Virus record (IMG/VR): IMGVR_UViG_2548876852_000004
Location: 1 to 8,279 of that record
Direction: 5' to 3' (one strand)
Source: a virus
Taxonomy: Duplodnaviria; Heunggongvirae; Uroviricota; Caudoviricetes
DNA: 8,279 bases
Shown: one piece after another, positions 1 to 8,279 of the stretch
Layout of the letters: every line of letters begins with the position of its first letter
How positions within the stretch are numbered: position 1 is the stretch's first letter
The notes under the pieces: model-generated
Told to the model about the DNA's origin: nothing
Database searches by the model: none
Seen by the model: the letters and a program-made list of their open reading frames with translations, nothing else
Position numbers and translations under genes: made by a program

Positions 1-8
1 CCCGCACG

Positions 9-287
9 TTACCTCCAGATGCGTTGCTGGAATGTGCGGGACGGACGCGGTGGGCGTTCGGAGTAAGGAAGCCTGACGGAGATTATCCAGTGACGATAAT
101 CGAGACTGAGGGCTTTCTTAACCTCGTATCCGCGCCTGCGGTAATACTGAATCAGCCATTCAGCCTGTTCTTCGGTGCAGGGGTCGTGCTGATACCAGTC
201 AGATTTGAATGCATGAGAACGCCGCCCGTGCCTGCTGGCAGGGGCGGCAGAGTTATCCGAATTGTAAAATTTGGTATCGTGCGCCAT
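9..287 (-). CDS. hypothetical protein (~92 aa), start and strand uncertain
   Basis: Minus-strand ORF with ATG at 285-287 and stop at 9-11; W/Y/R-rich composition and E. coli-like codon usage. The longer 9..416 version reads through an intrinsic terminator and is unlikely. SD is weak (AGAGAAAA) and no convincing promoter was found. An overlapping plus-strand ORF (24..413) cannot be fully excluded. Confidence 0.3.
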   Translation of the reverse strand: MAHDTKFYNSDNSAAPASRHGRRSHAFKSDWYQHDPCTEEQAEWLIQYYRRRGYEVKKALSLDYRHWIISVRLPYSERPPRPSRTFQQRIWR

Positions 288-357
288 CTGTTTTCTCTGC
301 TGGCGCAGCAGGTGCCAGTTGTTCAGGCTGACGGATGGATTGTAAACCAGAACGACC

Positions 358-386
358 AGAAAAAACAAAACCCGCCGAAGCGGGTT
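358..386 (-). terminator. rho-independent terminator downstream of hok
   Basis: On the minus strand: stem AACCCGC / GCGGGTT (7 bp, plus coords 369-375 and 380-386) with loop TTCG, followed directly by TTTTGTTTTTT (A-run 358-368 on plus). It lies about 70 nt past the hok stop codon. Confidence 0.7.
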
Positions 387-454
387 AAGTGCGGGTGCGT
401 TGAGGATGCCTGACACATCAGCGGTGGCGAGGGATTTCTCCCCCGCCTGGTCTC

Positions 455-610
455 TTACTCCTCAGGTTCGTAAGCTGTGAAGACAGCGACCTCCGTCTGG
501 CCGGTTCGGATTCGTACCTCGCAGAGGTCTTTCCTCGTTACCAGTGCCGTCACTATGACGGTTAAACAGATGACGATCAGGGCGATTAACATCGCCTTTT
601 GCTGCTTCAT
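455..610 (-). CDS. hokD: Hok/Gef-family type I toxin (51 aa, single transmembrane helix)
   Basis: Translation MKQQKAMLIALIVICLTVIVTALVTRKDLCEVRIRTGQTEVAVFTAYEPEE matches the Hok/Gef family and, as I recall it, HokD (RelF) in particular. ATG at 608-610 is preceded by AGGAG with 8-nt spacing; stop TAA at 455-457. The tracked ORF 455..649 begins at an upstream TTG with no SD. Family call is firm; the paralog name is from memory, and the K-12 relBE neighbours are absent here. Confidence 0.8.
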   Translation of the reverse strand: MKQQKAMLIALIVICLTVIVTALVTRKDLCEVRIRTGQTEVAVFTAYEPEE

Positions 611-624
611 AACCTGCTTCTCCT

Positions 625-1830
625 GTGTAAGTTCACAGAGATATTGCAATTGCCTCCGGATAAGTAAGGGGAGATTGCACTATGCAAATGCAGCATCTGA
701 TGGTTGGCTATCCTAAGTACTACCAAACGGCCGATTATGCGTTGAGGCTTTCAGTGATGGCTGATATAGCAACAATGAGAATGAAGGCTCTGCACTTCTG
801 GGATAAACACGGTATTTCTGCAGCTTCTGAAGCCTTTGGCGTGTCCTGCCGCACGCTTTACTGGTGGCGTCAGTTACTGAACAAGGAAGGACCTGAGGGG
901 CTAATCCCGCACAGTAAGGCACCTCTGGTGCGACGAAAAAAACACTGGCATCCCGATGTGCTGAAAGAGATTCGACGCCTCAGGACAGAGCTGCCGAACC
1001 TCGGTAAAGAGCAGATTTTTGTTCGCCTGAAGCCCTGGTGCGAACAGCGCTATCTGGCCTGTCCGAGTGTTTCCACCATCGGCAGAATGATCGCTGCCGC
1101 ACATGATAAAATGCGGATGATACCTGTGCGTCTGGGATCGCGGGGGAAGGCACTGCTTGTCAAAAAGCGGTCTGCCAAACCCCGCAGGCCAAAGCACTAC
1201 CGCCCGGTAAAGACAGGTGAGCTCATTGGGATGGACGCCATTGAGCTCAGAATGGGCGAACTGCGTCGCTATGTCATCACCATGATCGACGAATGCAGCA
1301 ATTACGCGCTGGCGCTGGCTGTGCCGTCACTCAACAGTGATATCGTCAATCACTTCTTCAGCCGCGCAGCCCGGTTGTTCCCGGTCGGTATCAGCCAGAT
1401 AATCACAGATAACGGAAAAGAGTTCCTGGGAAACTTCGACAAAACGCTGCAGGAAGCCGCTATCAAACACCTCTGGACCTATCCCTACACGCCAAAAATG
1501 AACGCTATCTGTGAACGTTTTAACCGGACGTTAAGAGAGCAGTTTATTGAATTTAATGAGATTTTACTCTTTGAAGATCTGGCGCTATTTAACCAGAAGC
1601 TGGCGGAATATCTGGTGCTGTATAACAGCAAAAGACCCCACAAGGCGCTCGCACTAATGACGCCCGTGGAATATATTTTAAAAGAGAATAAAAATTGCAA
1701 TATGTGGTGGACCCATACATCTCCTTGCCTTTCGGCGCGTAAGAGGCTAACCTACGTTTGTGAAGCATAGATTGGGCCTCAGATTAATGTTAAGCGTCTT
1801 GCAGGACGCGTAATGTTAACTGGGGCTTTT
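625..1830 (+). mobile_element. putative insertion sequence carrying the DDE transposase; boundaries not resolved
   Basis: Single transposase ORF wedged between hok and phage genes. Terminal inverted repeats could not be identified confidently by eye: only a shared TTCACA/TGTGAA motif near 633-638 and 1759-1764. The extent given is approximate. Confidence 0.3.
682..1770 (+). CDS. DDE transposase with N-terminal HTH and rve integrase core (IS481-family-like)
   Basis: 362-aa ORF. N-terminal HTH-like segment (ALHFWDKHGISAASEAFGVSCRTLYWWRQ). Catalytic triad candidates D (GMDAIE), D (ITDNGKEF) and E (NAICERFNRTLREQ), with about 35 residues between the second D and E, followed by KRPHKAL. SD AAGGGGAG sits 8 nt upstream of ATG 682. 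Confidence 0.8.
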   Translation: MQMQHLMVGYPKYYQTADYALRLSVMADIATMRMKALHFWDKHGISAASEAFGVSCRTLYWWRQLLNKEGPEGLIPHSKAPLVRRKKHWHPDVLKEIRRLRTELPNLGKEQIFVRLKPWCEQRYLACPSVSTIGRMIAAAHDKMRMIPVRLGSRGKALLVKKRSAKPRRPKHYRPVKTGELIGMDAIELRMGELRRYVITMIDECSNYALALAVPSLNSDIVNHFFSRAARLFPVGISQIITDNGKEFLGNFDKTLQEAAIKHLWTYPYTPKMNAICERFNRTLREQFIEFNEILLFEDLALFNQKLAEYLVLYNSKRPHKALALMTPVEYILKENKNCNMWWTHTSPCLSARKRLTYVCEA

Positions 1831-1954
1831 CTCTGTCTGCCTTACGGTGGCATGCCCGAGGCAGACAGCCTCAAGCACCCGCAGCAATTCTACTTAACTC
1901 TCGCTTTACAGCAAACCGTTTTGCCCGATATGGGAATTCCCATACGGAATGAAT

Positions 1955-2059
1955 TCAGTTCCCCAGGCGCTCCATCAAAAACACAACCAGGCAGTAAACA
2001 CCCACAACAGCAATAACAGCCAGAGCGCCTTCCATTACCAGTGAAATATCATCCGACAT
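1955..2059 (-). CDS. candidate small hydrophobic peptide (34 aa, one predicted TM helix)
   Basis: Not in the ORF track (below its length cutoff). ATG at 2057-2059 is preceded by a strong SD AAGGGAGGG (spacer about 3-4 nt). Translation MSDDISLVMEGALAVIAVVGVYCLVVFLMERLGN has acidic/charged ends and a hydrophobic core. Stop TGA at 1955-1957. An AT-rich possible promoter lies at 2060-2168. Confidence 0.3.
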   Translation of the reverse strand: MSDDISLVMEGALAVIAVVGVYCLVVFLMERLGN

Positions 2060-2168
2060 ATTCCCTCCCTTGGTGTGAATCCCGGCGAACGTTTTTACCC
2101 CCACCGACAAATAACATATACTAGAAAAGCAATAGCTATAGCAACGCCTGCAAATGCATCTGGCCGGC

Positions 2169-2732
2169 TCATTGGTTCTCCCCCTGTGTCGCTTCTACTG
2201 CGATCTGACTGGCGTATTCGTTAATGGTAACGATAAGTTCTTGCTCGGCCTCATCCAGACAACTACCGATACCTCGCCTGTCCACTTCAGAAGCATCGAA
2301 ATCTGCACGAAGCCTGGCGACCTTCAGGATTGCGGACAACACCTCATCAGGGATTGCCGGAGAGTTGGTTGACGTTTCCGAGATTATCCGAAAATTATTG
2401 GTTGACGAACCCTTATTTTCCCGAAAGTTTCCAGCCTGAAGCATGGCGGCGCGGTGACACCAGATAATCCAGCCAAGCGCCATATCCCATGCCATGTATT
2501 CTCTATCGCCATTTTTTGCTCTGCGGCGATCTACAGATTCCCCGAAACGCTTCTCCATAAATAATTCATAGGCTGCCCGTTCATCCGATACTGATGCCAG
2601 TGATGCCAGTGCAATTTTTAATGCGGTAAGCATGTTGTTTTGATCTTCATCGAGTCCGAACGGTATTTCATCCCGTGATGACTCAATTCCGGTAATCGTG
2701 TACTGTAGCCATTCTTTGGTTAATTCAGTCAT
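2169..2732 (-). CDS. hypothetical protein (187 aa), orphan gene with its own upstream region
   Basis: ATG at 2730-2732, stop at 2169-2171. A 126-bp AT-rich gap (2733-2858) separates it from the upstream gene. No recognisable domain motif by eye. Confidence 0.6.
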   Translation of the reverse strand: MTELTKEWLQYTITGIESSRDEIPFGLDEDQNNMLTALKIALASLASVSDERAAYELFMEKRFGESVDRRRAKNGDREYMAWDMALGWIIWCHRAAMLQAGNFRENKGSSTNNFRIISETSTNSPAIPDEVLSAILKVARLRADFDASEVDRRGIGSCLDEAEQELIVTINEYASQIAVEATQGENQ

Positions 2733-2766
2733 TTTTCACTACCGCCCTTTCGGGCGGTCTCCTGAT
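2733..2766 (-). promoter_or_regulatory. 5' UTR stem-loop placed between the SD and the start codon of the 187-aa gene
   Basis: Minus-strand RNA reads ...CAGGAG-ACCGCCC-GAAA-GGGCGGU-AGUGAAAA-AUG. The stem is a perfect 7 bp (plus coords 2741-2747 / 2752-2758) with a GAAA tetraloop. The SD AGGAG (2759-2763) is 26 nt from AUG in linear sequence but about 8 nt if the hairpin folds. No U-tract follows on either strand, so it is not a terminator. Confidence 0.45.
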
Positions 2767-2858
2767 GTTCTGAGGGTGCAGGAATCCCTCCGGTTAAGGA
2801 TTTAATAAAAATCATTTCTGATTTAAATTTTCAGTGTTTAGTTGTTGGTTTATAGCCT

Positions 2859-3170
2859 TTATGCTTCGGCCTTATTTCTCAGCCATACACAAACAGGACC
2901 ATCTTCGGTGTCATGTATCGAACCGATAAACCATCCCTCACCTTCTGGTCGCTCAGGTTCCCATGCTGAAATATCAGGGCCATCTGCGTCCAGATTAAAA
3001 TCATCTTCATCCATACTACGGATAGCCCACTGAAGATTATTTTTCTCCATCCAGGCGTTAAACTCTTCCGTTGAAATATATTCCCGACCATCACAGAATT
3101 TTTCATATTCAGGATGCGTCCAGCAGCCATATTCATTACGTTCCACTGGCATTTCTTTAATTGCGCTCAT
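2859..3170 (-). CDS. hypothetical phage protein (103 aa, acidic)
   Basis: ATG at 3168-3170 is preceded by a G-rich SD (GGGGGGG) and directly follows the upstream gene stop (TAAATG). Part of a run of tightly packed minus-strand genes. Confidence 0.6.
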   Translation of the reverse strand: MSAIKEMPVERNEYGCWTHPEYEKFCDGREYISTEEFNAWMEKNNLQWAIRSMDEDDFNLDADGPDISAWEPERPEGEGWFIGSIHDTEDGPVCVWLRNKAEA

Positions 3171-3356
3171 TTACCCCCCCTTATTTAATTTTCTACGACA
3201 CTTTTTACAATCATCTGGACTTTCGAATGTATCCGGCTCACGCTCATTGCCAAAATACATCCACCCACCGCAAGTACTTGTTATTTCACCTTCAGCAAAA
3301 TAATGATGCTTTTTCGCCATAAGTGGCCTTGCCCAGCCCGGATTCGTTTTACTCAC
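3171..3356 (-). CDS. small Cys-containing protein (61 aa), possible zinc-ribbon-like
   Basis: GTG start at 3354-3356 is preceded by a strong SD AAGGAGG (spacer 6). GTGA overlap with the upstream gene stop. Cys residues at TSTCGG and CKKC. Confidence 0.55.
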   Translation of the reverse strand: MSKTNPGWARPLMAKKHHYFAEGEITSTCGGWMYFGNEREPDTFESPDDCKKCRRKLNKGG

Positions 3357-3709
3357 TTGTTGCCTCCTTTGCGAAGCTCTGCGACTAACTCGTCACATAT
3401 GTGCGTCAAAGAGCAAAGTTTGATTGCTGGATGTTCGCGCACCATCTCCACACCCTGCGCCCGCAATTCTGCCAGAAAAGCGTAGGGGTCAGTTTTTTCA
3501 CTGTGGTACATGGCATCATAGATAATCATTGCAGCGACACCTGCCTGTCCTGCATCTGTGACGGATATATGCTCAAGGGCTACGGCCATTGCGTGTTTCA
3601 ACCTCTCATTTTCCACCTCAAGCACCACACGATTAGCCTCCAGCTCTTCTATGCGTTTTTTTGCTGCTCCCAGCTCAACACGCAGCTCCTGATAGTTAAT
3701 CTCGCTCAT
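3353..3709 (-). CDS. hypothetical phage protein (118 aa) with N-terminal coiled-coil-like segment
   Basis: ATG at 3707-3709 is preceded by GGGAGGAAGGAGA. ATGA overlap with the upstream 74-aa ORF stop. N-terminal heptad-like region ELRVELGAAKKRIEELEANRVVLEVENERLK. Confidence 0.6.
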   Translation of the reverse strand: MSEINYQELRVELGAAKKRIEELEANRVVLEVENERLKHAMAVALEHISVTDAGQAGVAAMIIYDAMYHSEKTDPYAFLAELRAQGVEMVREHPAIKLCSLTHICDELVAELRKGGNK

Positions 3710-3930
3710 TCTCCTTCCTCCCGCACTGCTGTTTTATATGCCCGAAGCACATGCGATGTTTTTCCTGACACAGTGCTTCTCAGAAAGAAAATTCCACTGG
3801 TGTTTATTACCAGATACGGGTCAGCAAGACGCAGCATATCCAGTATGTGATTATGTTTTCTTGTTTCCAGCACCGTACTGGAAATAAGCATATGTGACAC
3901 GGGGCCGAAATCATGATATCTGATTTTCAT
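3706..3930 (-). CDS. hypothetical protein (74 aa)
   Basis: ATG at 3928-3930 has a modest SD (AGGGTG). Its stop overlaps the next start (ATGA), indicating translational coupling within the operon. Confidence 0.5.
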   Translation of the reverse strand: MKIRYHDFGPVSHMLISSTVLETRKHNHILDMLRLADPYLVINTSGIFFLRSTVSGKTSHVLRAYKTAVREEGE

Positions 3931-3951
3931 ATCATCACCCTGCTGTAAAAA

Positions 3952-4707
3952 TTACCCGTTATCTCCTGTCGTTATTTTCTGTATGACATCACGATGCTTA
4001 TTAATTTCCCGCAGCGCGGCGCATAAGCGCTCCCACTTCTGAACCTGACCTTTTGCCCGGCGCAGCTCGCGGTTAGCCACATGCAGCGATGGTAAAATCA
4101 GACCATCCGGATGCTTTCTGATGAACGACGACTGTGACTGCACTGTGACCGCCACACTTTCAGTTTTAATTTCTTCCTGTGTTTCCGCTTCCCGGACTGG
4201 TAACGCAGCACCTGCTGGCTGAGGAAAGGCCTTACCATCATTTTTCGTTACCGGCGCGGCTTTCGGATCTGCTGGTAAATTCCCCCCCGACATGCAGTAA
4301 CGAAATTTACCGTTCTGATTAACGCGTGCCAGCCGCCCCGTTGCGGTTACCACCGCCAGCGTGGAAGCAACCTTGCGAGTACTGACGCCGAACTTACCCG
4401 CCAGTTCCTCACACGTTTTAGCACCATCCTGACCGATAAACTCAACCATCATGTCTGCGGTAACTTTTGGAGCGACCTCTTCGGTTACCACATCCGGCGC
4501 TTCAGGTTGTAGTGCCTGCCCTTCGGTTACCCCGGCTTCACCTTCGACAGCCAGAAACCAGGTGTGACCCGTTTTATCAACAACGCCATTTTTTTTGAGT
4601 TCCCACAGTTCGTTAAGAACTTCTTCACGGCTGATATCAAGCCGCGCCGCCAGTTCAACAGAATTGGCTTTTCCCATCGCTTTCAGTGCATGCAATACAG
4701 TTTCCAT
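3952..4707 (-). CDS. hypothetical phage protein (251 aa) with two winged-helix-like segments separated by Pro/Ala/Glu-rich linkers
   Basis: ATG at 4705-4707 is preceded by SD GAGGT (spacer about 9). Two HTH-like segments: N-terminal (SVELAARLDISREEVLNELWELKKNGVV) and central (KTCEELAGKFGVSTRKVASTLAVVTATGRL). Sits immediately downstream of the replication genes. Confidence 0.65.
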   Translation of the reverse strand: METVLHALKAMGKANSVELAARLDISREEVLNELWELKKNGVVDKTGHTWFLAVEGEAGVTEGQALQPEAPDVVTEEVAPKVTADMMVEFIGQDGAKTCEELAGKFGVSTRKVASTLAVVTATGRLARVNQNGKFRYCMSGGNLPADPKAAPVTKNDGKAFPQPAGAALPVREAETQEEIKTESVAVTVQSQSSFIRKHPDGLILPSLHVANRELRRAKGQVQKWERLCAALREINKHRDVIQKITTGDNG

Positions 4708-4732
4708 CGAAAATTTACCTCGTCAAAAATTC

Positions 4733-5464
4733 TCACATACCCTGACGTCCAACGTTTGACCGCCAGCTCTCCCAGTTAAAATTCACCCAACGACCACCAT
4801 TCATGGTCATACGGTCCATCACCCGATCTCCGAGGAGTGTGCTCATCGCTGCGTGATTCAGGTTCGTCAGCATTCCGACACTACGCATCGAAGCCGTTCT
4901 GCGGTCGACTATCTGGTTCAGCGTGACCTGCTCGTTGCGCGTATCCCGCTGCATGCCAATTTCATCAAGGACCAGAAGGTCAACTCCACAAAGCTCCTGT
5001 AAAAATTTTTCCCCGGACTGGCCGTTGTCGTAGCCGTCATGCAACACGCTCATGACATCGGACACGGTGACGATAATCACGCTTCTCCCCTTCGCCATCA
5101 GCCGATTGCCAATCGCTGCTGCCAGGTGATTTTTACCGGTACCAGGTTTACCGCTGAACACGAAGTTTGTACATCCGGTCATCAATTCATCGGCAATGGA
5201 TTTCGCCTGGCTCAGAGCATGGCGCTGACCGTCGTTCTGCACCCGGTAGTTCCCGAATGAGCACTTCCTGTGAAGCGGCTGGATGCCCGCACGGTTCAGG
5301 ATTTTTTCAACCCGCACCTGATGATTCAGGCGGTTAATCTCCTCGCTGCGTTTTCGTCCTTCAGCAAGTTGCCATTCCCGCCACTCCTCCACCGTCCGGT
5401 ACGGTGGAACCGCCCCCCTGTGGTGCAAGTCTGCGAATACGTTCAAGAACCCCAACTGCCGCAA
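4733..5464 (-). CDS. DnaC-like replicative helicase loader (AAA+ ATPase, IstB/DnaC family)
   Basis: Walker A GKPGTGKNHLAAAIG and Walker B LLVLDEIG. N-terminal region aligns with the DnaC N-terminus as I recall it (IQPLHRKCSFGNYRV...GQRHALSQAK). First in-frame start is TTG at 5462-5464 with no strong SD, so the exact start is uncertain. Confidence 0.85.
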   Translation of the reverse strand: MRQLGFLNVFADLHHRGAVPPYRTVEEWREWQLAEGRKRSEEINRLNHQVRVEKILNRAGIQPLHRKCSFGNYRVQNDGQRHALSQAKSIADELMTGCTNFVFSGKPGTGKNHLAAAIGNRLMAKGRSVIIVTVSDVMSVLHDGYDNGQSGEKFLQELCGVDLLVLDEIGMQRDTRNEQVTLNQIVDRRTASMRSVGMLTNLNHAAMSTLLGDRVMDRMTMNGGRWVNFNWESWRSNVGRQGM

Positions 5465-5480
5465 TGTTTTTCATGACACG

Positions 5481-6443
5481 TCACCCCCTGAATCCCGGCG
5501 GTATTTCAGTGTCCGGTTCAGAAATGTGATTCACGCAACGCTGCGCGGGCGAACGCCCCAGGCGGATAACCAGTTCATCCCATTTTTCCCGGAGTTTTGC
5601 CGGACTCATGATGTTTTTTACCCAGAACGAATCCCGCTGGAGACGCCCAAACATTTCACAAATTTGTCTGTGAGTTCTGCCATCCAGCATCCGCATTGTC
5701 CGCACGTCATTGGCCCATGCAGTCCAGTTGGGTTCTTTCGGTCTCGTGATCTCGCCATCATCGCTGGCCGCCTGCTCGTAAAGACTCACGATTCGTCCCC
5801 AGATCCACTGTGCGCACACCAAATCTTCCTGACTTCCCCACTGGCGTTTTTTCGCACTGAACACAACCGCGTCAGGGTGTCGGGTTAAAAAATCCTGTTC
5901 AGCCGTCTGCGGGTCCGGTTGCGAAGCGTCCGGACAAGAAGATCTTTTATCTGACGGATCAGGTTTTAATACTGACGGATCGGGGTCAATCATCGCCCCC
6001 CTAATCGGCAGTTTGTTATCAACAGTTGATCCATCAAAATTTGACGGGTCAACCGTTGAGGGGGCAATATTTGACGGGTCAACTGTTAACGGGTCATTTT
6101 TTGCCGGGCTAATTTTTCTTTTCGGTTTATATGACTCACGCGCCGCTGCCGCAGCTGCTTCGAGTTTTTCCACATTAAGCCGATAGATATTGCTTACATT
6201 ACGCCCACCGACCTTACGCTCTTCCTTCGTCAGCCAGCCCTCTTTCGCCAGTTCTGCAATAGCCGATTTCACTGTGGATTCACTTCTTGCACCGATCTGA
6301 CGCCGGATAGTTTCAATGGCAGGCCATGACACGCCCTCGTCATTGCTGTAGTCTGCAAGACGGGCCATAACCGCCACCCTGGATAAGATCATGCCGGTGA
6401 AGGCGCACCCTTCCCAGACAAGACCATGAAGCTTGCTGCTCAT
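5481..6443 (-). CDS. lambda O-like replication initiator
   Basis: C-terminal domain matches the lambda O C-terminus as I recall it (WANDVRTMRMLDGRTHRQICEMFGRLQRDSFWVKNIMSPAKLREKWDEL vs lambda WANDIRLMRERDGRNHRDMCVLFRWACQDNFWSGNVLSPAKLRDKWTQL). N-terminal HTH region and a repeat-containing linker. ATG at 6441-6443 is preceded by GGGGG; the tracked ORF starts at an upstream GTG (6458). Confidence 0.85.
   Translation of the reverse strand: MSSKLHGLVWEGCAFTGMILSRVAVMARLADYSNDEGVSWPAIETIRRQIGARSESTVKSAIAELAKEGWLTKEERKVGGRNVSNIYRLNVEKLEAAAAAARESYKPKRKISPAKNDPLTVDPSNIAPSTVDPSNFDGSTVDNKLPIRGAMIDPDPSVLKPDPSDKRSSCPDASQPDPQTAEQDFLTRHPDAVVFSAKKRQWGSQEDLVCAQWIWGRIVSLYEQAASDDGEITRPKEPNWTAWANDVRTMRMLDGRTHRQICEMFGRLQRDSFWVKNIMSPAKLREKWDELVIRLGRSPAQRCVNHISEPDTEIPPGFRG
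6017..6133. repeat. putative phage replication origin inside the O-like gene: three 11-bp palindromic iterons at 30-bp spacing plus an AT-rich tract
   Basis: TCAACAGTTGA (6019-6029), TCAACCGTTGA (6049-6059) and TCAACTGTTAA (6079-6089), the last two each preceded by TTGACGGG, followed by the AT-rich stretch 6094-6133. On the coding strand they encode repeated TVDPSN peptides, matching lambda's ori-within-O arrangement. Confidence 0.55.
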
Positions 6444-6465
6444 AAAACCCCCGAACACCGTGCTT

Positions 6466-6891
6466 TTAGTGCATCACCACAGCATTCCCTGCCGGGCCGC
6501 CGCGATTCATCTGGTCATACAAAACAACCGCTGACGCAACAAAATCATCGACATCCTTCACCAGCCGATCCCTCCGTTCGACGATCTCACGGTAATATTC
6601 AGAACTGTGGCTGCGCATACGGGCCACCAGCAAAGGCGGCATCGCCTTTTCGATCGCCGGTAACAGAGCCTGCATTTTTTCAACAGCATCAGGGGTGTCT
6701 TTATCCAGCCAACGGAAAATTTTCTGGGTATTACGGGCCAGGGCTTCCGGATGGCTGTCGTCATACAGTTCCGGGAACGTCATTCCCAGCTCGAAATACG
6801 CTTTGGTAATTTTCGCAGCCGGTACTTTTTCGCCGTCCGGATGCGCCCAGACATTCATCGCCATGCGGATGTGTTCATGCTTGATTTTCAT
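6466..6891 (-). CDS. YdaT-like (CII-position) early regulatory protein
   Basis: 140-aa ORF sitting between the Cro-like gene and the O-like gene, the position held by YdaT in Rac-type prophages. ATG at 6889-6891 is preceded by SD GGAG (spacer 8). It overlaps the Cro-like stop by 17 nt. Family assignment is from memory and position. Confidence 0.55.
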   Translation of the reverse strand: MKIKHEHIRMAMNVWAHPDGEKVPAAKITKAYFELGMTFPELYDDSHPEALARNTQKIFRWLDKDTPDAVEKMQALLPAIEKAMPPLLVARMRSHSSEYYREIVERRDRLVKDVDDFVASAVVLYDQMNRGGPAGNAVVMH

Positions 6892-7156
6892 GAATCAAGC
6901 TCCTAGAAAGTGGTTGTGTTAACGTTTTGGTATCTTCCAGCTCGGGCCAAATATTCATCCAATCAAAAGGCCTTAGTTGCTGACGTGTAACTTCACCATT
7001 ACTGGCTCGCTCAATAAGGACACATAACGATGCCCCTAACACTTGACCTTTACTCAATGCCTTTCTTAGATAACCGATGCTGGTACCACACTCGCATGCA
7101 AACATACGCTGTTCATCTGACGAAAGAGAATTGAGAAATATTCTTAATTCTTCCAT
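6875..7156 (-). CDS. Cro-like HTH regulator (YdaS-like)
   Basis: 93-aa ORF divergent from the repressor. HTH-like segment CGTSIGYLRKALSKGQVLGASLCVLIERASNGEV. Consensus SD AAGGAG sits 5 nt upstream of ATG 7154-7156. Confidence 0.7.
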   Translation of the reverse strand: MEELRIFLNSLSSDEQRMFACECGTSIGYLRKALSKGQVLGASLCVLIERASNGEVTRQQLRPFDWMNIWPELEDTKTLTQPLSRSLIHENQA

Positions 7157-7181
7157 AGCTACTCCTTAGTAAACACAGCAA

Positions 7182-7250
7182 AGAATACCCACAGGTAAAT
7201 AAAAGTCAATACCCACAGGTTGTTTACCTTGCGGTAATCGCATCTATTAT
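7182..7250. promoter_or_regulatory. OR-like divergent promoter/operator region
   Basis: Two copies of ATACCCACAGGT(A/T) at 7185-7198 and 7209-7222, 24 bp apart. Candidate rightward-early promoter on the minus strand: -35 TTGACT (7204-7209), 16-nt spacer, -10 TATTCT (7182-7187). Candidate repressor promoter on the plus strand: -35 TTTACC (7223-7228), -10 TATTAT (7245-7250). The repressor ATG at 7257 has no SD and lies about 7 nt past the -10, suggesting a leaderless mRNA. Confidence 0.55.
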
Positions 7251-7256
7251 TTACCT

Positions 7257-7676
7257 ATGGACAAATATGAATTTAGACGACAGCAACTCATCAAAATTCG
7301 TGATGAGAAATGCGATGGTAAAGCGGTTAACGTGGCCAGAAAGATCGGGCGCGAGCCTTCTTATGTATCAAGAATGTTGTACCCAGAGGGGAAAAAGGGA
7401 AAAAAACGGATCGCTGATGATATGGTGGAGATTATCGAAGAGTCCTTTGGGTTACCCCGGGGATGGATGGATGGTATCGTTTCATCATCAACGAACACAG
7501 CCTCCAGTTATGAAACAAGGGTTCTAACGCCACGACAACGTATTTTTTTAGATCTCTTAGACGAACTGCCAGAAAGTGAAGCGGATAAATTATTAAAAAC
7601 TCTTGAAGAGAAAAAACAGTATTACAATATGATCTACGAAGAAATCCGTAAAAAGAAAGCACAAAACGCATCATAG
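7257..7676 (+). CDS. CI-like prophage repressor, short form without a peptidase domain (RacR/DicA-type)
   Basis: 139-aa ORF with N-terminal HTH (AVNVARKIGREPSYVSRMLYPEGKK). C-terminal LDELPESEADKLL resembles the DicA C-terminus as I recall it. Divergent from the Cro-like gene and flanked on both sides by the same operator motif. Confidence 0.7.
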   Translation: MDKYEFRRQQLIKIRDEKCDGKAVNVARKIGREPSYVSRMLYPEGKKGKKRIADDMVEIIEESFGLPRGWMDGIVSSSTNTASSYETRVLTPRQRIFLDLLDELPESEADKLLKTLEEKKQYYNMIYEEIRKKKAQNAS

Positions 7677-7718
7677 CTCACCAAACAACTAGTCACCAGT
7701 TAAGACACTGCAAAAAAG

Positions 7719-7760
7719 TTACCCATGGGTATTTACTTTTTAAATACCTATGGGTATTCT
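7719..7760 (+). promoter_or_regulatory. OL-like operator pair overlapping a leftward-early-type promoter
   Basis: TTACCCATGGGTAT (7719-7732, core TACCCATGGGTA is a perfect palindrome) and ATACCTATGGGTAT (7744-7757). Overlapping promoter candidate: -35 TTTACT (7732-7737), 17-nt spacer, -10 TATTCT (7755-7760). Same motif as the OR-like sites. Confidence 0.55.
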
Positions 7761-7941
7761 TCTTTTCATACCAACCCACCCCGCCCCACAGAATGCAGGG
7801 CAATACTTTGAGTTACCAGGCAGTGGTCAGGGGTTAAGTAGCCAGCCCGAGGCGTATGAACATGACGGCGGGAACACTTTGTATAACAGCGCAGCAGGTT
7901 TTTAGTTCCGCGACCCGGCGTTAAGGGTAAATGAGGTCAAC

Positions 7942-8094
7942 ATGGATATGCTCAATCTTGGCAACAATGAATCTCTGGTGTGCGGAGTATTCCCCAACCA
8001 CGACGGCACGTTTACCGCGATGACGTATACCAGAAGTAAAACGTTTAAAACCGAAGCTGGCGCGCATCGCTGGTTAGCAAGAAACGCTAACTGA
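7942..8094 (+). CDS. small protein (50 aa), first gene downstream of the OL-like promoter; possibly YdfA/YdaF-like
   Basis: Not in the ORF track. ATG at 7942 is preceded by SD GAGG (spacer 5). Translation MDMLNLGNNESLVCGVFPNHDGTFTAMTYTRSKTFKTEAGAHRWLARNAN. Its size and position after the repressor match the small DUF1391-type genes of Qin/Rac prophages; the family assignment is from memory only. Confidence 0.45.
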   Translation: MDMLNLGNNESLVCGVFPNHDGTFTAMTYTRSKTFKTEAGAHRWLARNAN

Positions 8095-8279
8095 TTAGCG
8101 CCAGTAAAAACAGGTTTCCACAGGTTAATTTACCCTGAAAAGTCAGGGCATAACACGAAAGCGCACGGCGAGATCCCTTTGCATATAAGTCTTGTCGTTA
8201 AATTTCTTCGACCGTGCGCTTCTGGTTGTGGCAATCCGCGAAATGGCGCGGCGGTAAGTATGGCGGGGTTATTCCTTCC

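Follow-up and report, generated by a model that had tools for sequence, protein, structure and literature searches.

In phage lambda, the immunity region comprises cI, cro, the operators OR1 to OR3 and OL, and the promoters PR, PRM and PL; its operators are 17 bp long, OR2 and OR3 are 23 bp apart, OL has three sites, and CI and Cro both bind the same operator sites. Other lambdoid switches are built on short repressors. DicA of the Qin prophage of Escherichia coli K-12, which represses dicBp, is not cleaved; the antirepressor Rem lifts its repression, and, independently of RecA, the switch also flips of its own accord or in response to stress (PMC10448788). The short Gifsy repressors, with which Lemire et al. 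group DicA, are inactivated by LexA-controlled antirepressors able to act in trans (PMC3121763). In prophage CP-933P of E. coli O157:H7, leaderless translation of the repressor gene paaR2 has been proved by 5' RACE and N-terminal sequencing (PMC8630535), and the sequence TTGATTN6AATCAA at the ydaS/ydaT junction has been footprinted as the operator of YdaT (PMC9986795). Here we describe a region of an 8,279-nt stretch of viral DNA (the window; class Caudoviricetes, IMG/VR record IMGVR_UViG_2548876852_000004, positions 1 to 8,279) that is very probably the immunity switch of a lambdoid (lambda-like) E. coli prophage, ordinary in its lambda-type layout.

Operators and promoters of the putative switch

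The cro-like and repressor genes of the window are divergent, on the minus and plus strands respectively, with start codons 100 bp apart, as in a lambda-type switch. Five copies of a dyad with the core TACC-N4-GGTA stand at the locus, three at OR, between the two genes, and two at OL, just past the repressor gene. The features of the predicted switch are as follows.

6875-7156, minus strand: cro-like gene, 93 amino acids (aa), with the helix-turn-helix (HTH) motif CGTSIGYLRKA; PHROG 35, E 5e-23; YdaS match weak and under the Pfam cut-off
7162-7167, minus strand: Shine-Dalgarno sequence AAGGAG of cro, read from the sequence, 5 nt before the ATG at 7156
7182-7209, minus strand: PR, with -35 TTGACT (7209-7204), 16-bp spacer and -10 TATTCT (7187-7182); promoter scan, 9 of 12 matches
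7185-7198, both strands: OR1, ATACCCACAGGTAA, one mismatch to ATACCCAYRGGTAT; overlaps the PR -10
7209-7222, both strands: OR2, ATACCCACAGGTTG, two mismatches to ATACCCAYRGGTAT, right half degenerate; lies over the -35 of PR and borders that of PRM
7223-7250, plus strand: PRM, with -35 TTTACC (7223-7228), 16-bp spacer and -10 TATTAT (7245-7250); promoter scan
7224-7237, both strands: OR3, TTACCTTGCGGTAA, matching the core perfectly; lies over the -35 and spacer of PRM
7257-7676, plus strand: repressor gene, 139 aa, assigned from domain conservation, C-terminal homology and an AlphaFold2 model
7719-7732, both strands: O_L2, TTACCCATGGGTAT, one mismatch to ATACCCAYRGGTAT; abuts the PL -35
7720-7766, plus strand: 16-bp hairpin of the two OL palindromes, then TTCTTCTTTT; candidate intrinsic terminator of the repressor transcript from a terminator scan (16-pair stem, 7720-7756)
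7732-7760, plus strand: candidate PL, with -35 TTTACT (7732-7737), 17-bp spacer and -10 TATTCT (7755-7760); found by eye and by homology, 8 of 12 matches
7744-7757, both strands: O_L1, ATACCTATGGGTAT, no mismatch to ATACCCAYRGGTAT on the minus strand and one on the plus strand; overlaps the PL spacer and -10

A preliminary description of this DNA had reported four copies of the 14-mer ATACCCAYRGGTAT, two between the divergent genes and two downstream of the repressor gene, 24-25 bp apart within each pair. We found all four, with 1, 2, 1 and 0-1 mismatches, the members being 24 bp apart in the OR pair and 25 bp apart in the OL pair. The count of four, with only two sites at OR, did not stand, since OR3, which lies 15 bp past OR2, is a fifth. 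The motif as first written also proved too narrow: judged by conservation, the specific contacts would be the TACC and GGTA half-sites, and the centre has only a pyrimidine-purine (YRYR) preference. OR3 had been overlooked because its central bases deviate from the 14-mer. A search of the window with the 14-mer gave 7 matches against 0.11 expected, and none of 200 shuffled sequences reached 7. With the core TACC-N4-GGTA and at most one mismatch there were 9 matches against 1.61 expected, a number that was again reached in 0 of 200 shuffles, and 5 of the 9 fell within 7186-7756.

The three OR dyads overlap the PR and PRM hexamers called by the promoter scan, as the three operators of a lambda-type switch do. 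OR2 adjoins the -35 of PRM at 7223, and its centre lies at -41.5 relative to the repressor ATG, which bears out the earlier proposal of a lambda OR2-like position. Operators and promoters overlap alike at PR and PL: at both, the upstream operator ends ...GGGTAT, the final base of which opens the -35, and the downstream operator also ends ...GGGTAT and is followed by TCT, giving the -10 TATTCT. Among the aligned E. coli alleles, which included loci L049-L051, the PL -10 reads TATCCT in four others against TATTCT in the window (position 7758), and one O157:H7 strain has TTGGCT as the PR -35 (position 7206). A possible fourth OR site, TTACCTATGGAC at 7251-7262, lies over the repressor start codon; its right half is damaged and it is unconserved in related loci, and we took it as a chance occurrence. 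A literature search on six operator strings returned unrelated primer matches only and no paper on these operators, and we found no earlier description of the repressor and its putative binding sites.

Compared with lambda, the locus has the same divergent repressor and cro genes, three dyads over about 55 bp that overlap PR and PRM, an OR1-OR2 spacing of 24 bp, an OR2 centre at about -42 from the PRM start, a predicted start of the repressor mRNA at the ATG, and OL and PL downstream of the repressor gene in the same reading direction. It differs from lambda in its operators, which are 14 rather than 17 bp long and of another sequence, in the OR2-OR3 spacing (15 versus 23 bp), and in having two OL sites instead of three. 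Furthermore, the repressor lacks an S24 peptidase and oligomerisation domain, the role of CII appears to be held by a YdaT-family protein, and the window has no N gene or nut site after PL.

Conservation across related loci

A scan of one genome per bacterial species yielded 42 loci with relatives, which together with the window and the E. coli lambdoid phage mEp043 (PV340537) made a set of 44 loci (228 kb). The three-site OR layout is kept in 32 of the 44, from Enterobacterales to Neisseria, Burkholderiales and Xanthomonas, and across these distant taxa the sites stand at about -72, -47 and -32 from the ATG, with OR3 starting 32-35 bp before it. OR3 follows OR2 at 15 bp in all 32 loci, and OR2 follows OR1 at 25 bp in 27 loci and at 24 bp in 4. 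At OR1, the letters T-A-C-C are found in 32, 32, 32 and 31 of the 32 loci and the letters G-G-T-A in 31, 32, 32 and 32, the four central positions prefer Y-R-Y-R, and the flanks are variable. OR2 keeps its left half, TACC, in every one of the 32 loci, preceded by CAA (31-32 of 32), the complement of the TTG in the PR -35. The right half of OR2 is degenerate throughout, the last two positions varying between T, G and C and between T, A and C.

Past the repressor gene, 30 loci have equivalents of the window pair at 7719-7757, amounting to 31 pairs of sites 25-26 bp apart that lie 40 bp to 1.8 kb from the repressor stop codon. In most pairs, the upstream site runs straight into a TTGAC-like hexamer (GGTA, then TTGAC), and the downstream site overlaps a -10-like hexamer about 17 bp later (for example, GGTA followed by TATTT or by TTCTT), an arrangement that points to a second operator cluster over a leftward promoter. 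The 44 loci together hold 126 perfect TACC-N4-GGTA sites, where base composition predicts 3.2, and 113 of the 126 are at OR or at OL pairs. In 32 other loci, the gene divergently upstream of the repressor gene encodes a Cro-family protein that has the motif CGTSIGYLRKA and is 36-73% identical to the window Cro. Within E. coli, allele VTB96937v is 96.5% identical to the window, and its differences at OR1, OR2 and O_L1 are confined to central bases, the half-sites being the same.

The recurrence of the OR layout and the OL pair together with the repressor DNA-binding domain and the Cro family is strong evidence of the footprint type that the dyads are operators of the repressor/Cro pair, as the preliminary description had suggested for both clusters. 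The comparison cannot say whether a dyad is bound by the repressor or by Cro. It does define a widespread type of CI, Cro and operator, TTACC-YRYR-GGTAA, with three OR and two OL sites, that reaches into Neisseria, Burkholderiales and Xanthomonas.

Phage mEp043 shares with the window a Cro that is 73% identical, the positions of OR1, OR2 and OR3 (TTACCTGTAGGTAA, with ATACCCATAGGTTA beginning 25 bp after its start and TTACCGGCAGGTAA 15 bp further on), an OL pair 25 bp apart and a -10, TAGAAT, that ends 6 nt before the ATG. It differs in its cI, an annotated repressor of 228 aa with an S24/LexA-type C-terminus, and in its surroundings, with an extra gene and a separate terminator before OL and with nutL and N after it. 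A literature search on mEp043 found no published operator study.

The same set of loci bears on the start of the repressor mRNA. No Shine-Dalgarno sequence precedes the repressor ATG at 7257, and the -10 of PRM ends 6 nt before it. The start codon itself is fixed, because residues M1, K3, Y4 and E5 are invariant in an alignment of 23 sequences. When the best -10 hexamer was taken at each locus, the gap to the ATG was 6 nt in 18 and 7 nt in 11 of the 32 loci. A leaderless repressor mRNA, which the preliminary description had considered probable, is a well-supported prediction because this gap is 6-7 nt in 29 of the 32; the predicted start is the A of ATG 7257. In lambda, PRM has the same geometry of -10 and ATG, and the cI mRNA is leaderless; the geometry agrees with that of paaR2 as well.

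The repressor protein

By homology, the 139-aa repressor is a chimera of an mEp043-type DNA-binding domain and a DicA-type C-terminal module, divided as follows.

Residues 1-72: HTH DNA-binding domain
Residues 76-87: disordered linker
Residues 88-139: DicA-type helical C-terminal module

The N-terminal domain is without a match in Pfam and NCBIfam. Residues 1-72 are nonetheless common to hundreds of proteins of 219-242 aa that carry Peptidase_S24 (PF00717), at about 65-82% identity. An alignment of 23 sequences of this domain has 29 invariant columns, with the pattern MDKYE..RR...REPSYVSRMLYPEGK..KKRIADDM...LPRGWMD. Compared with mEp043 cI, the repressor is 65% identical over its first 86 residues, and the helix PSYVSRML is identical. 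Together, residues 1-72 and TACC-N4-GGTA operators, found at 32 loci, place the protein in a family of mEp043-type CI DNA-binding domains for which there is no Pfam model. Other relatives of the domain end in further short tails of other kinds.

A Pfam scan of the whole repressor gave zero matches and no S24 peptidase. With a length of 139 aa, against 219-242 aa for the homologues that carry PF00717, this agrees with the earlier statement that the protein has no peptidase domain. In its place, residues 88-139 align with the C-terminus of DicA (BLASTP, 33% identity over 46 residues, E 2e-7), which is the only part of the two proteins that aligns, and positions 81-131 of the NCBIfam DicA model match the C-terminus with an E of 1.9e-5, which does not reach the cut-off for the whole protein. 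Phage Tritos has a CI that is closer than DicA, with 39% identity over residues 21-139 (E 3e-23) and nearly identical C-terminal 50 residues. In an exhaustive search, 44 representative clusters proved to end in this module, and their full-length proteins are mostly about 120-180 aa long. It aligns across 37 proteins, in which the partner N-terminal domain is HTH_3 in 29 and Phage_CI_repr in 7. The module, encoded at 7518-7673, has the motif L-x-P-R-Q..LL.LF..LP.SEQD.L...LEEKK..YD.L.EEL, and no Pfam family matched it in our scans.

The AlphaFold2 model of the repressor (mean predicted local distance difference test score 86.5) has a helical HTH domain, in which helices 23-30 and 34-40 form the HTH, and a helix-turn-long-helix tail, with residues 76-87 between them as a disordered linker. 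Its best fold match, the Rep chain of 5d50, is weak (E 1e-3, template modelling score 0.44-0.46), and the others are generic XRE-type HTH folds. A sequence search of solved structures gave chance-level matches only, with E 0.08 or worse.

The switch is similar to DicA/DicC of the Qin prophage in its short repressor without a cleavage site (139 aa here, 135 aa for DicA), in the homologous C-terminal module and in gene order, which runs cro-like gene, repressor gene, two operator-like dyads downstream (seen by eye in Qin) and DUF1391, with dicB in related prophages. It differs from DicA in its operators and in its N-terminal domain, which is not homologous: DicA-like proteins have HTH_3, and no HTH_3 match was obtained here. 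In length (within about 135-150 aa), in its N-terminal HTH, in its lack of a peptidase and in its DicA-like C-terminus, the repressor fits the class of DicA and GfoR/GtgR. The Gifsy repressors GfoR and GtgR, and Rep of the Rep-Ant system of Salmonella phage SPC32H (PDB 5d50), are likewise small uncleavable repressors; these are inactivated by antirepressors. The resemblance to Rep is a weak fold match, mostly of generic HTH, and the search of this prophage turned up no antirepressor module under LexA control.

The repressor open reading frame (ORF) is intact in the representative cluster, which has 543 member sequences; RefSeq labels the 139-aa protein "hypothetical protein". Some E. coli copies are frameshifted: proteins P0010, P0016 and P0019 begin with an out-of-frame ATG (7267) and return to the repressor frame in the A-runs at about 7393-7410, which would destroy their DNA-binding domain.

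Proposed mechanism and alternative explanations

From the sites, their spacing and conservation and the domain homologies of the proteins, we infer how binding, activation, leaderless initiation, termination and induction would proceed, and we hold it highly probable that the locus is a lambda-type switch with five operators, a leaderless repressor mRNA and no SOS autocleavage. The 139-aa repressor, and probably also the Cro-like protein, would bind the 14-bp dyads TTACC-YRYR-GGTAA. Repressor on OR1 and OR2 would cover the -10 and -35 of PR, silencing cro, ydaT and the replication genes. A dimer on OR2 would be centred 41.5 bp upstream of the PRM start and, lying close to the position of lambda OR2, would probably activate PRM. 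Occupation of OR3 would cover the PRM -35 and spacer, allowing the repressor to regulate its own gene negatively and Cro to effect an early shut-off. Transcription from PRM would start at the A of the ATG or within one base of it, giving a leaderless mRNA as for lambda cI and paaR2. The two OL sites, 25 bp apart, would cover the -35 and -10 of PL, which would drive the leftward operon, represented in the window by the DUF1391 gene and in related prophages by dicB, an exonuclease gene, xis and int. In the PRM RNA, the OL palindromes would form a hairpin followed by a U-run that probably halts the repressor transcript before the leftward operon. YdaT bound at 6881-6898 would provide a CII-like establishment input. 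The likeliest routes of induction would be a small antirepressor acting in trans or a spontaneous or stress-driven flip between repressor and Cro, as for DicA/DicC. The switch belongs functionally with the short-repressor lambdoid switches DicA/DicC and PaaR2/YdaS/YdaT, and it would work like that of lambda.

Folding of the RNA from 7677 to 7775 gave -25 kcal/mol (z = -5.0), and none of 200 shuffled sequences folded as well. The terminator scan found no further terminator between the repressor stop codon (7676) and the OL pair. It is plausible that the hairpin and T-run end the repressor transcript, because read-through from PRM would enter the operon that holds dicB in related prophages. Termination would be a secondary role at most, because in many loci the OL pair lies far from the repressor gene. 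The OL pair may have been co-opted, acting as operator in the DNA and as terminator of the repressor transcript in the RNA.

These same results could be read to mean that the downstream pair (7719-7757) is nothing but a Rho-independent terminator of the repressor gene and resembles OR incidentally. The called stem with its TTCTTCTTTT run, the stable fold, the lack of another terminator after the stop codon and PL hexamers too weak for the scan would all fit. We give this a small chance, since TACC-N4-GGTA pairs at 25-26 bp recur in 30 loci at very different distances past the stop codon, often beyond other genes, where they cannot be what ends the repressor transcript, and most of them carry the promoter-like hexamers described above. 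In mEp043, moreover, a distinct terminator precedes the pair, and the half-sites in the window are identical to those of OR. A dual role as operator and terminator is the more likely. It might also be argued that the Cro-like protein or some other factor is the sole ligand of the dyads and that the 139-aa protein is not the maintenance repressor but, for example, a defective leftover of a cryptic prophage. Co-variation with the sites is as tight for the Cro family as for the repressor DNA-binding domain, so that comparison alone does not decide on the binder; the prophage carries an insertion sequence (IS), and the frameshifted copies and the "hypothetical protein" label would agree with a decayed gene. 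In lambda, the same sites serve both proteins. The chance of a Cro-only switch is very small in our view: the DNA-binding domain is shared, recognition helix included, with cI of mEp043, which is an infectious phage, the gene occupies the cI position relative to PRM, OR and OL, its ORF is intact in the 543-member cluster, and the geometry of OR1, OR2 and OR3 to PRM is sensible only for a gene product that acts on its own gene. The idea that the repeats are chance or structural palindromes without a regulatory role, such as a recombination site or leftover IS ends, has nothing to recommend it beyond the commonness of short palindromes in AT-rich intergenic DNA. Its chance is negligible, and we regard it as refuted by the enrichment and cross-locus conservation: no shuffle out of 200 reached the observed counts, 90% of the 126 sites (3.2 expected) are at two fixed positions relative to the repressor gene, and position, spacing and half-sites are conserved across proteobacterial orders.

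Several points weigh against the lambda-type switch as we propose it. PL is a weak consensus match, at 8 of 12 under the scan threshold of 9 and hence without a scan call, and the TATCCT of most other E. coli alleles is even weaker than the -10 of the window. The short distance between OR2 and OR3 means that cooperative and steric behavior may differ from that of lambda. The hairpin is not independent evidence for termination, since any two similar palindromes would fold in this way. A tblastn search for a Rem homologue in the window, in loci L001 and L048 and in the Tritos locus found none, the only match being that of Qin to itself. There was no convincing LexA box in the window or in 70 kb of related prophage, and no annotated antirepressor in the related prophage, in which divergent small antirepressors could escape such searches. 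An antirepressor route is unsupported for this element.

Induction and immunity

RecA-stimulated autocleavage is very unlikely as a route of induction, because the C-terminus is a DicA-type helical module without an S24 peptidase. The preliminary description had reasoned in the same way, and soundly so, given that no S24 domain is found. PaaR2 of CP-933P, also a short repressor, does not respond to mitomycin C.

Two candidates for parts of an induction pathway were rejected. The only perfect CTGT-N8-ACAG in the window, CTGTGTAAGTTCACAG at 623-638, was considered as a LexA box; it is in the hok leader, just upstream of the hok start, and its flanks are unlike those of a LexA site. Other CTGT-N8-ACAG sites of the related prophage have GC-rich spacers or lie outside the prophage. 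A 92-aa ORF at 12-287 (minus strand; PHROG 1212, unknown function) lies directly downstream of hok, where Qin has rem. As a positional analogue of Rem it was ruled out, having no BLASTP alignment to K-12 Rem and no Pfam match.

The point of most interest to us is that the same immunity specificity would occur with and without an SOS-cleavable domain. The same DNA-binding domain is joined to an S24 peptidase in some proteins and to a DicA-type tail here, which would be a clean natural exchange of induction modules with immunity specificity kept. A tentative and rather doubtful extension of this is that the repressor is a naturally SOS-blind member of a CI family whose proteins are otherwise SOS-cleavable, a member in which the S24 peptidase was swapped for a portable DicA-type module and the recognition helix, the Cro family and the operators were kept. 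If this were true, the approximately 15% of E. coli genomes that carry the repressor would be immune to mEp043-type phages, and co-resident homoimmune prophages could stay repressed during the SOS response. The element itself would then be induced only by a trans-acting antirepressor of another prophage or by noise in the switch. Systems of this kind are already known from lambda, DicA/DicC and PaaR2/YdaS/YdaT, and the finding adds a very common, uncharacterised member. It also proposes a function and an operator map for a protein that RefSeq calls hypothetical and Pfam misses; the region occurs in O157:H7 and other Shiga-toxin-producing lineages, among others.

YdaT and repressor establishment

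Downstream of cro in the rightward operon, the window has a YdaT-family gene and a candidate operator for its product.

6466-6891, minus strand: YdaT-family gene, the CII equivalent, second in the rightward (PR) operon; matches Pfam YdaT_toxin (E 2.8e-10), passing the curated cut-off, and PHROG 163, "CII-like transcriptional activator" (E 3e-47)
6881-6898, both strands: putative YdaT operator (OM-type), TTGATTTTCATGAATCAA, at the cro/ydaT junction and spanning the ydaT start codon; perfect match to TTGATTN6AATCAA

The site at 6881-6898 is the sole perfect match to TTGATTN6AATCAA in the window. With a YdaT homologue and this operator at the cro/ydaT junction, the locus has the combination that characterizes the CP-933P switch, and by analogy 6881-6898 is the expected site of PRE-equivalent control. 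A second, leadered repressor transcript is likewise expected, because the perfect YdaT operator sits at the position of the CP-933P PRE equivalent. No consensus promoter for a PRE equivalent was found near 6881-6898, which is to be expected of an activator-dependent promoter and is hence uninformative.

The resemblance to PaaR2/YdaS/YdaT of CP-933P extends to a short CI-like repressor without a peptidase domain, to OR and OL, to a Cro equivalent and to YdaT as CII equivalent (PMC8630535, PMC9986795). The specificity of repressor and operators differs from that of PaaR2, because PaaR2 starts MQKKE, where the repressor here starts MDKYEF, and its repeats have the consensus GTTTAGTAA instead of TACC-N4-GGTA; the repressor is thus not of the PaaR2 type. 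The window also lacks the toxin-antitoxin genes paaA2-parE2 that follow the repressor gene in CP-933P. Assembled from these homologies, the switch is a mosaic of mEp043-type operators, DNA-binding domain and Cro, a DicA-type tail and a CII module of the CP-933P/Rac type.

Prophage setting

Judged by its ORFs and their Pfam and PHROG matches, the window holds the early region of a lambdoid E. coli prophage. The genes outside the switch are listed below.

455-649, minus strand: hok gene
682-1770, plus strand: IS481-type transposase ORF
4733-5464, minus strand: DnaC-like ATPase gene
5481-6458, minus strand: replication-initiator-like gene
7942-8094, plus strand: DUF1391 (YdfA-like) gene, first in the leftward (PL) operon; Pfam DUF1391, E 1.3e-28

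The DUF1391 gene has the position that ydfA has after dicA in the Qin prophage. The 631-bp region from OR to OL is carried, at a coverage of at least 80%, by 822 of 5,426 complete E. coli genomes (about 15%), mostly at more than 95% identity; one O157:H7 strain was checked directly, and the region was present. In one of these genomes, a related prophage is integrated at ompW, with dicB, an exonuclease gene, xis and int in its left arm and Q, lysis and lambda-like structural genes in its right arm.

An Rfam scan of the window gave no match in the switch region, the sole match being sok elsewhere in the window. The segment 8096-8148 is a mosaic junction without a counterpart in the related prophage L001; within it, TTCCACAGGTTAATTTACC looks like the OR2/OR3 junction, either as a degenerate operator remnant or by chance, and the small hairpin CCCTGA-aaag-TCAGGG comes after it. 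At the other end of the window, an IS of about 1.1 kb (625-1719) with the IS481-type transposase is inserted within the hok/sok locus, where it splits sok and the upstream region (1714-1880, minus strand; Rfam sok, 111 bits) from the hok ORF (455-610, minus strand). Prophage L001 is without this insertion, and the flanks overlap by 6 bp in the manner of a target duplication.

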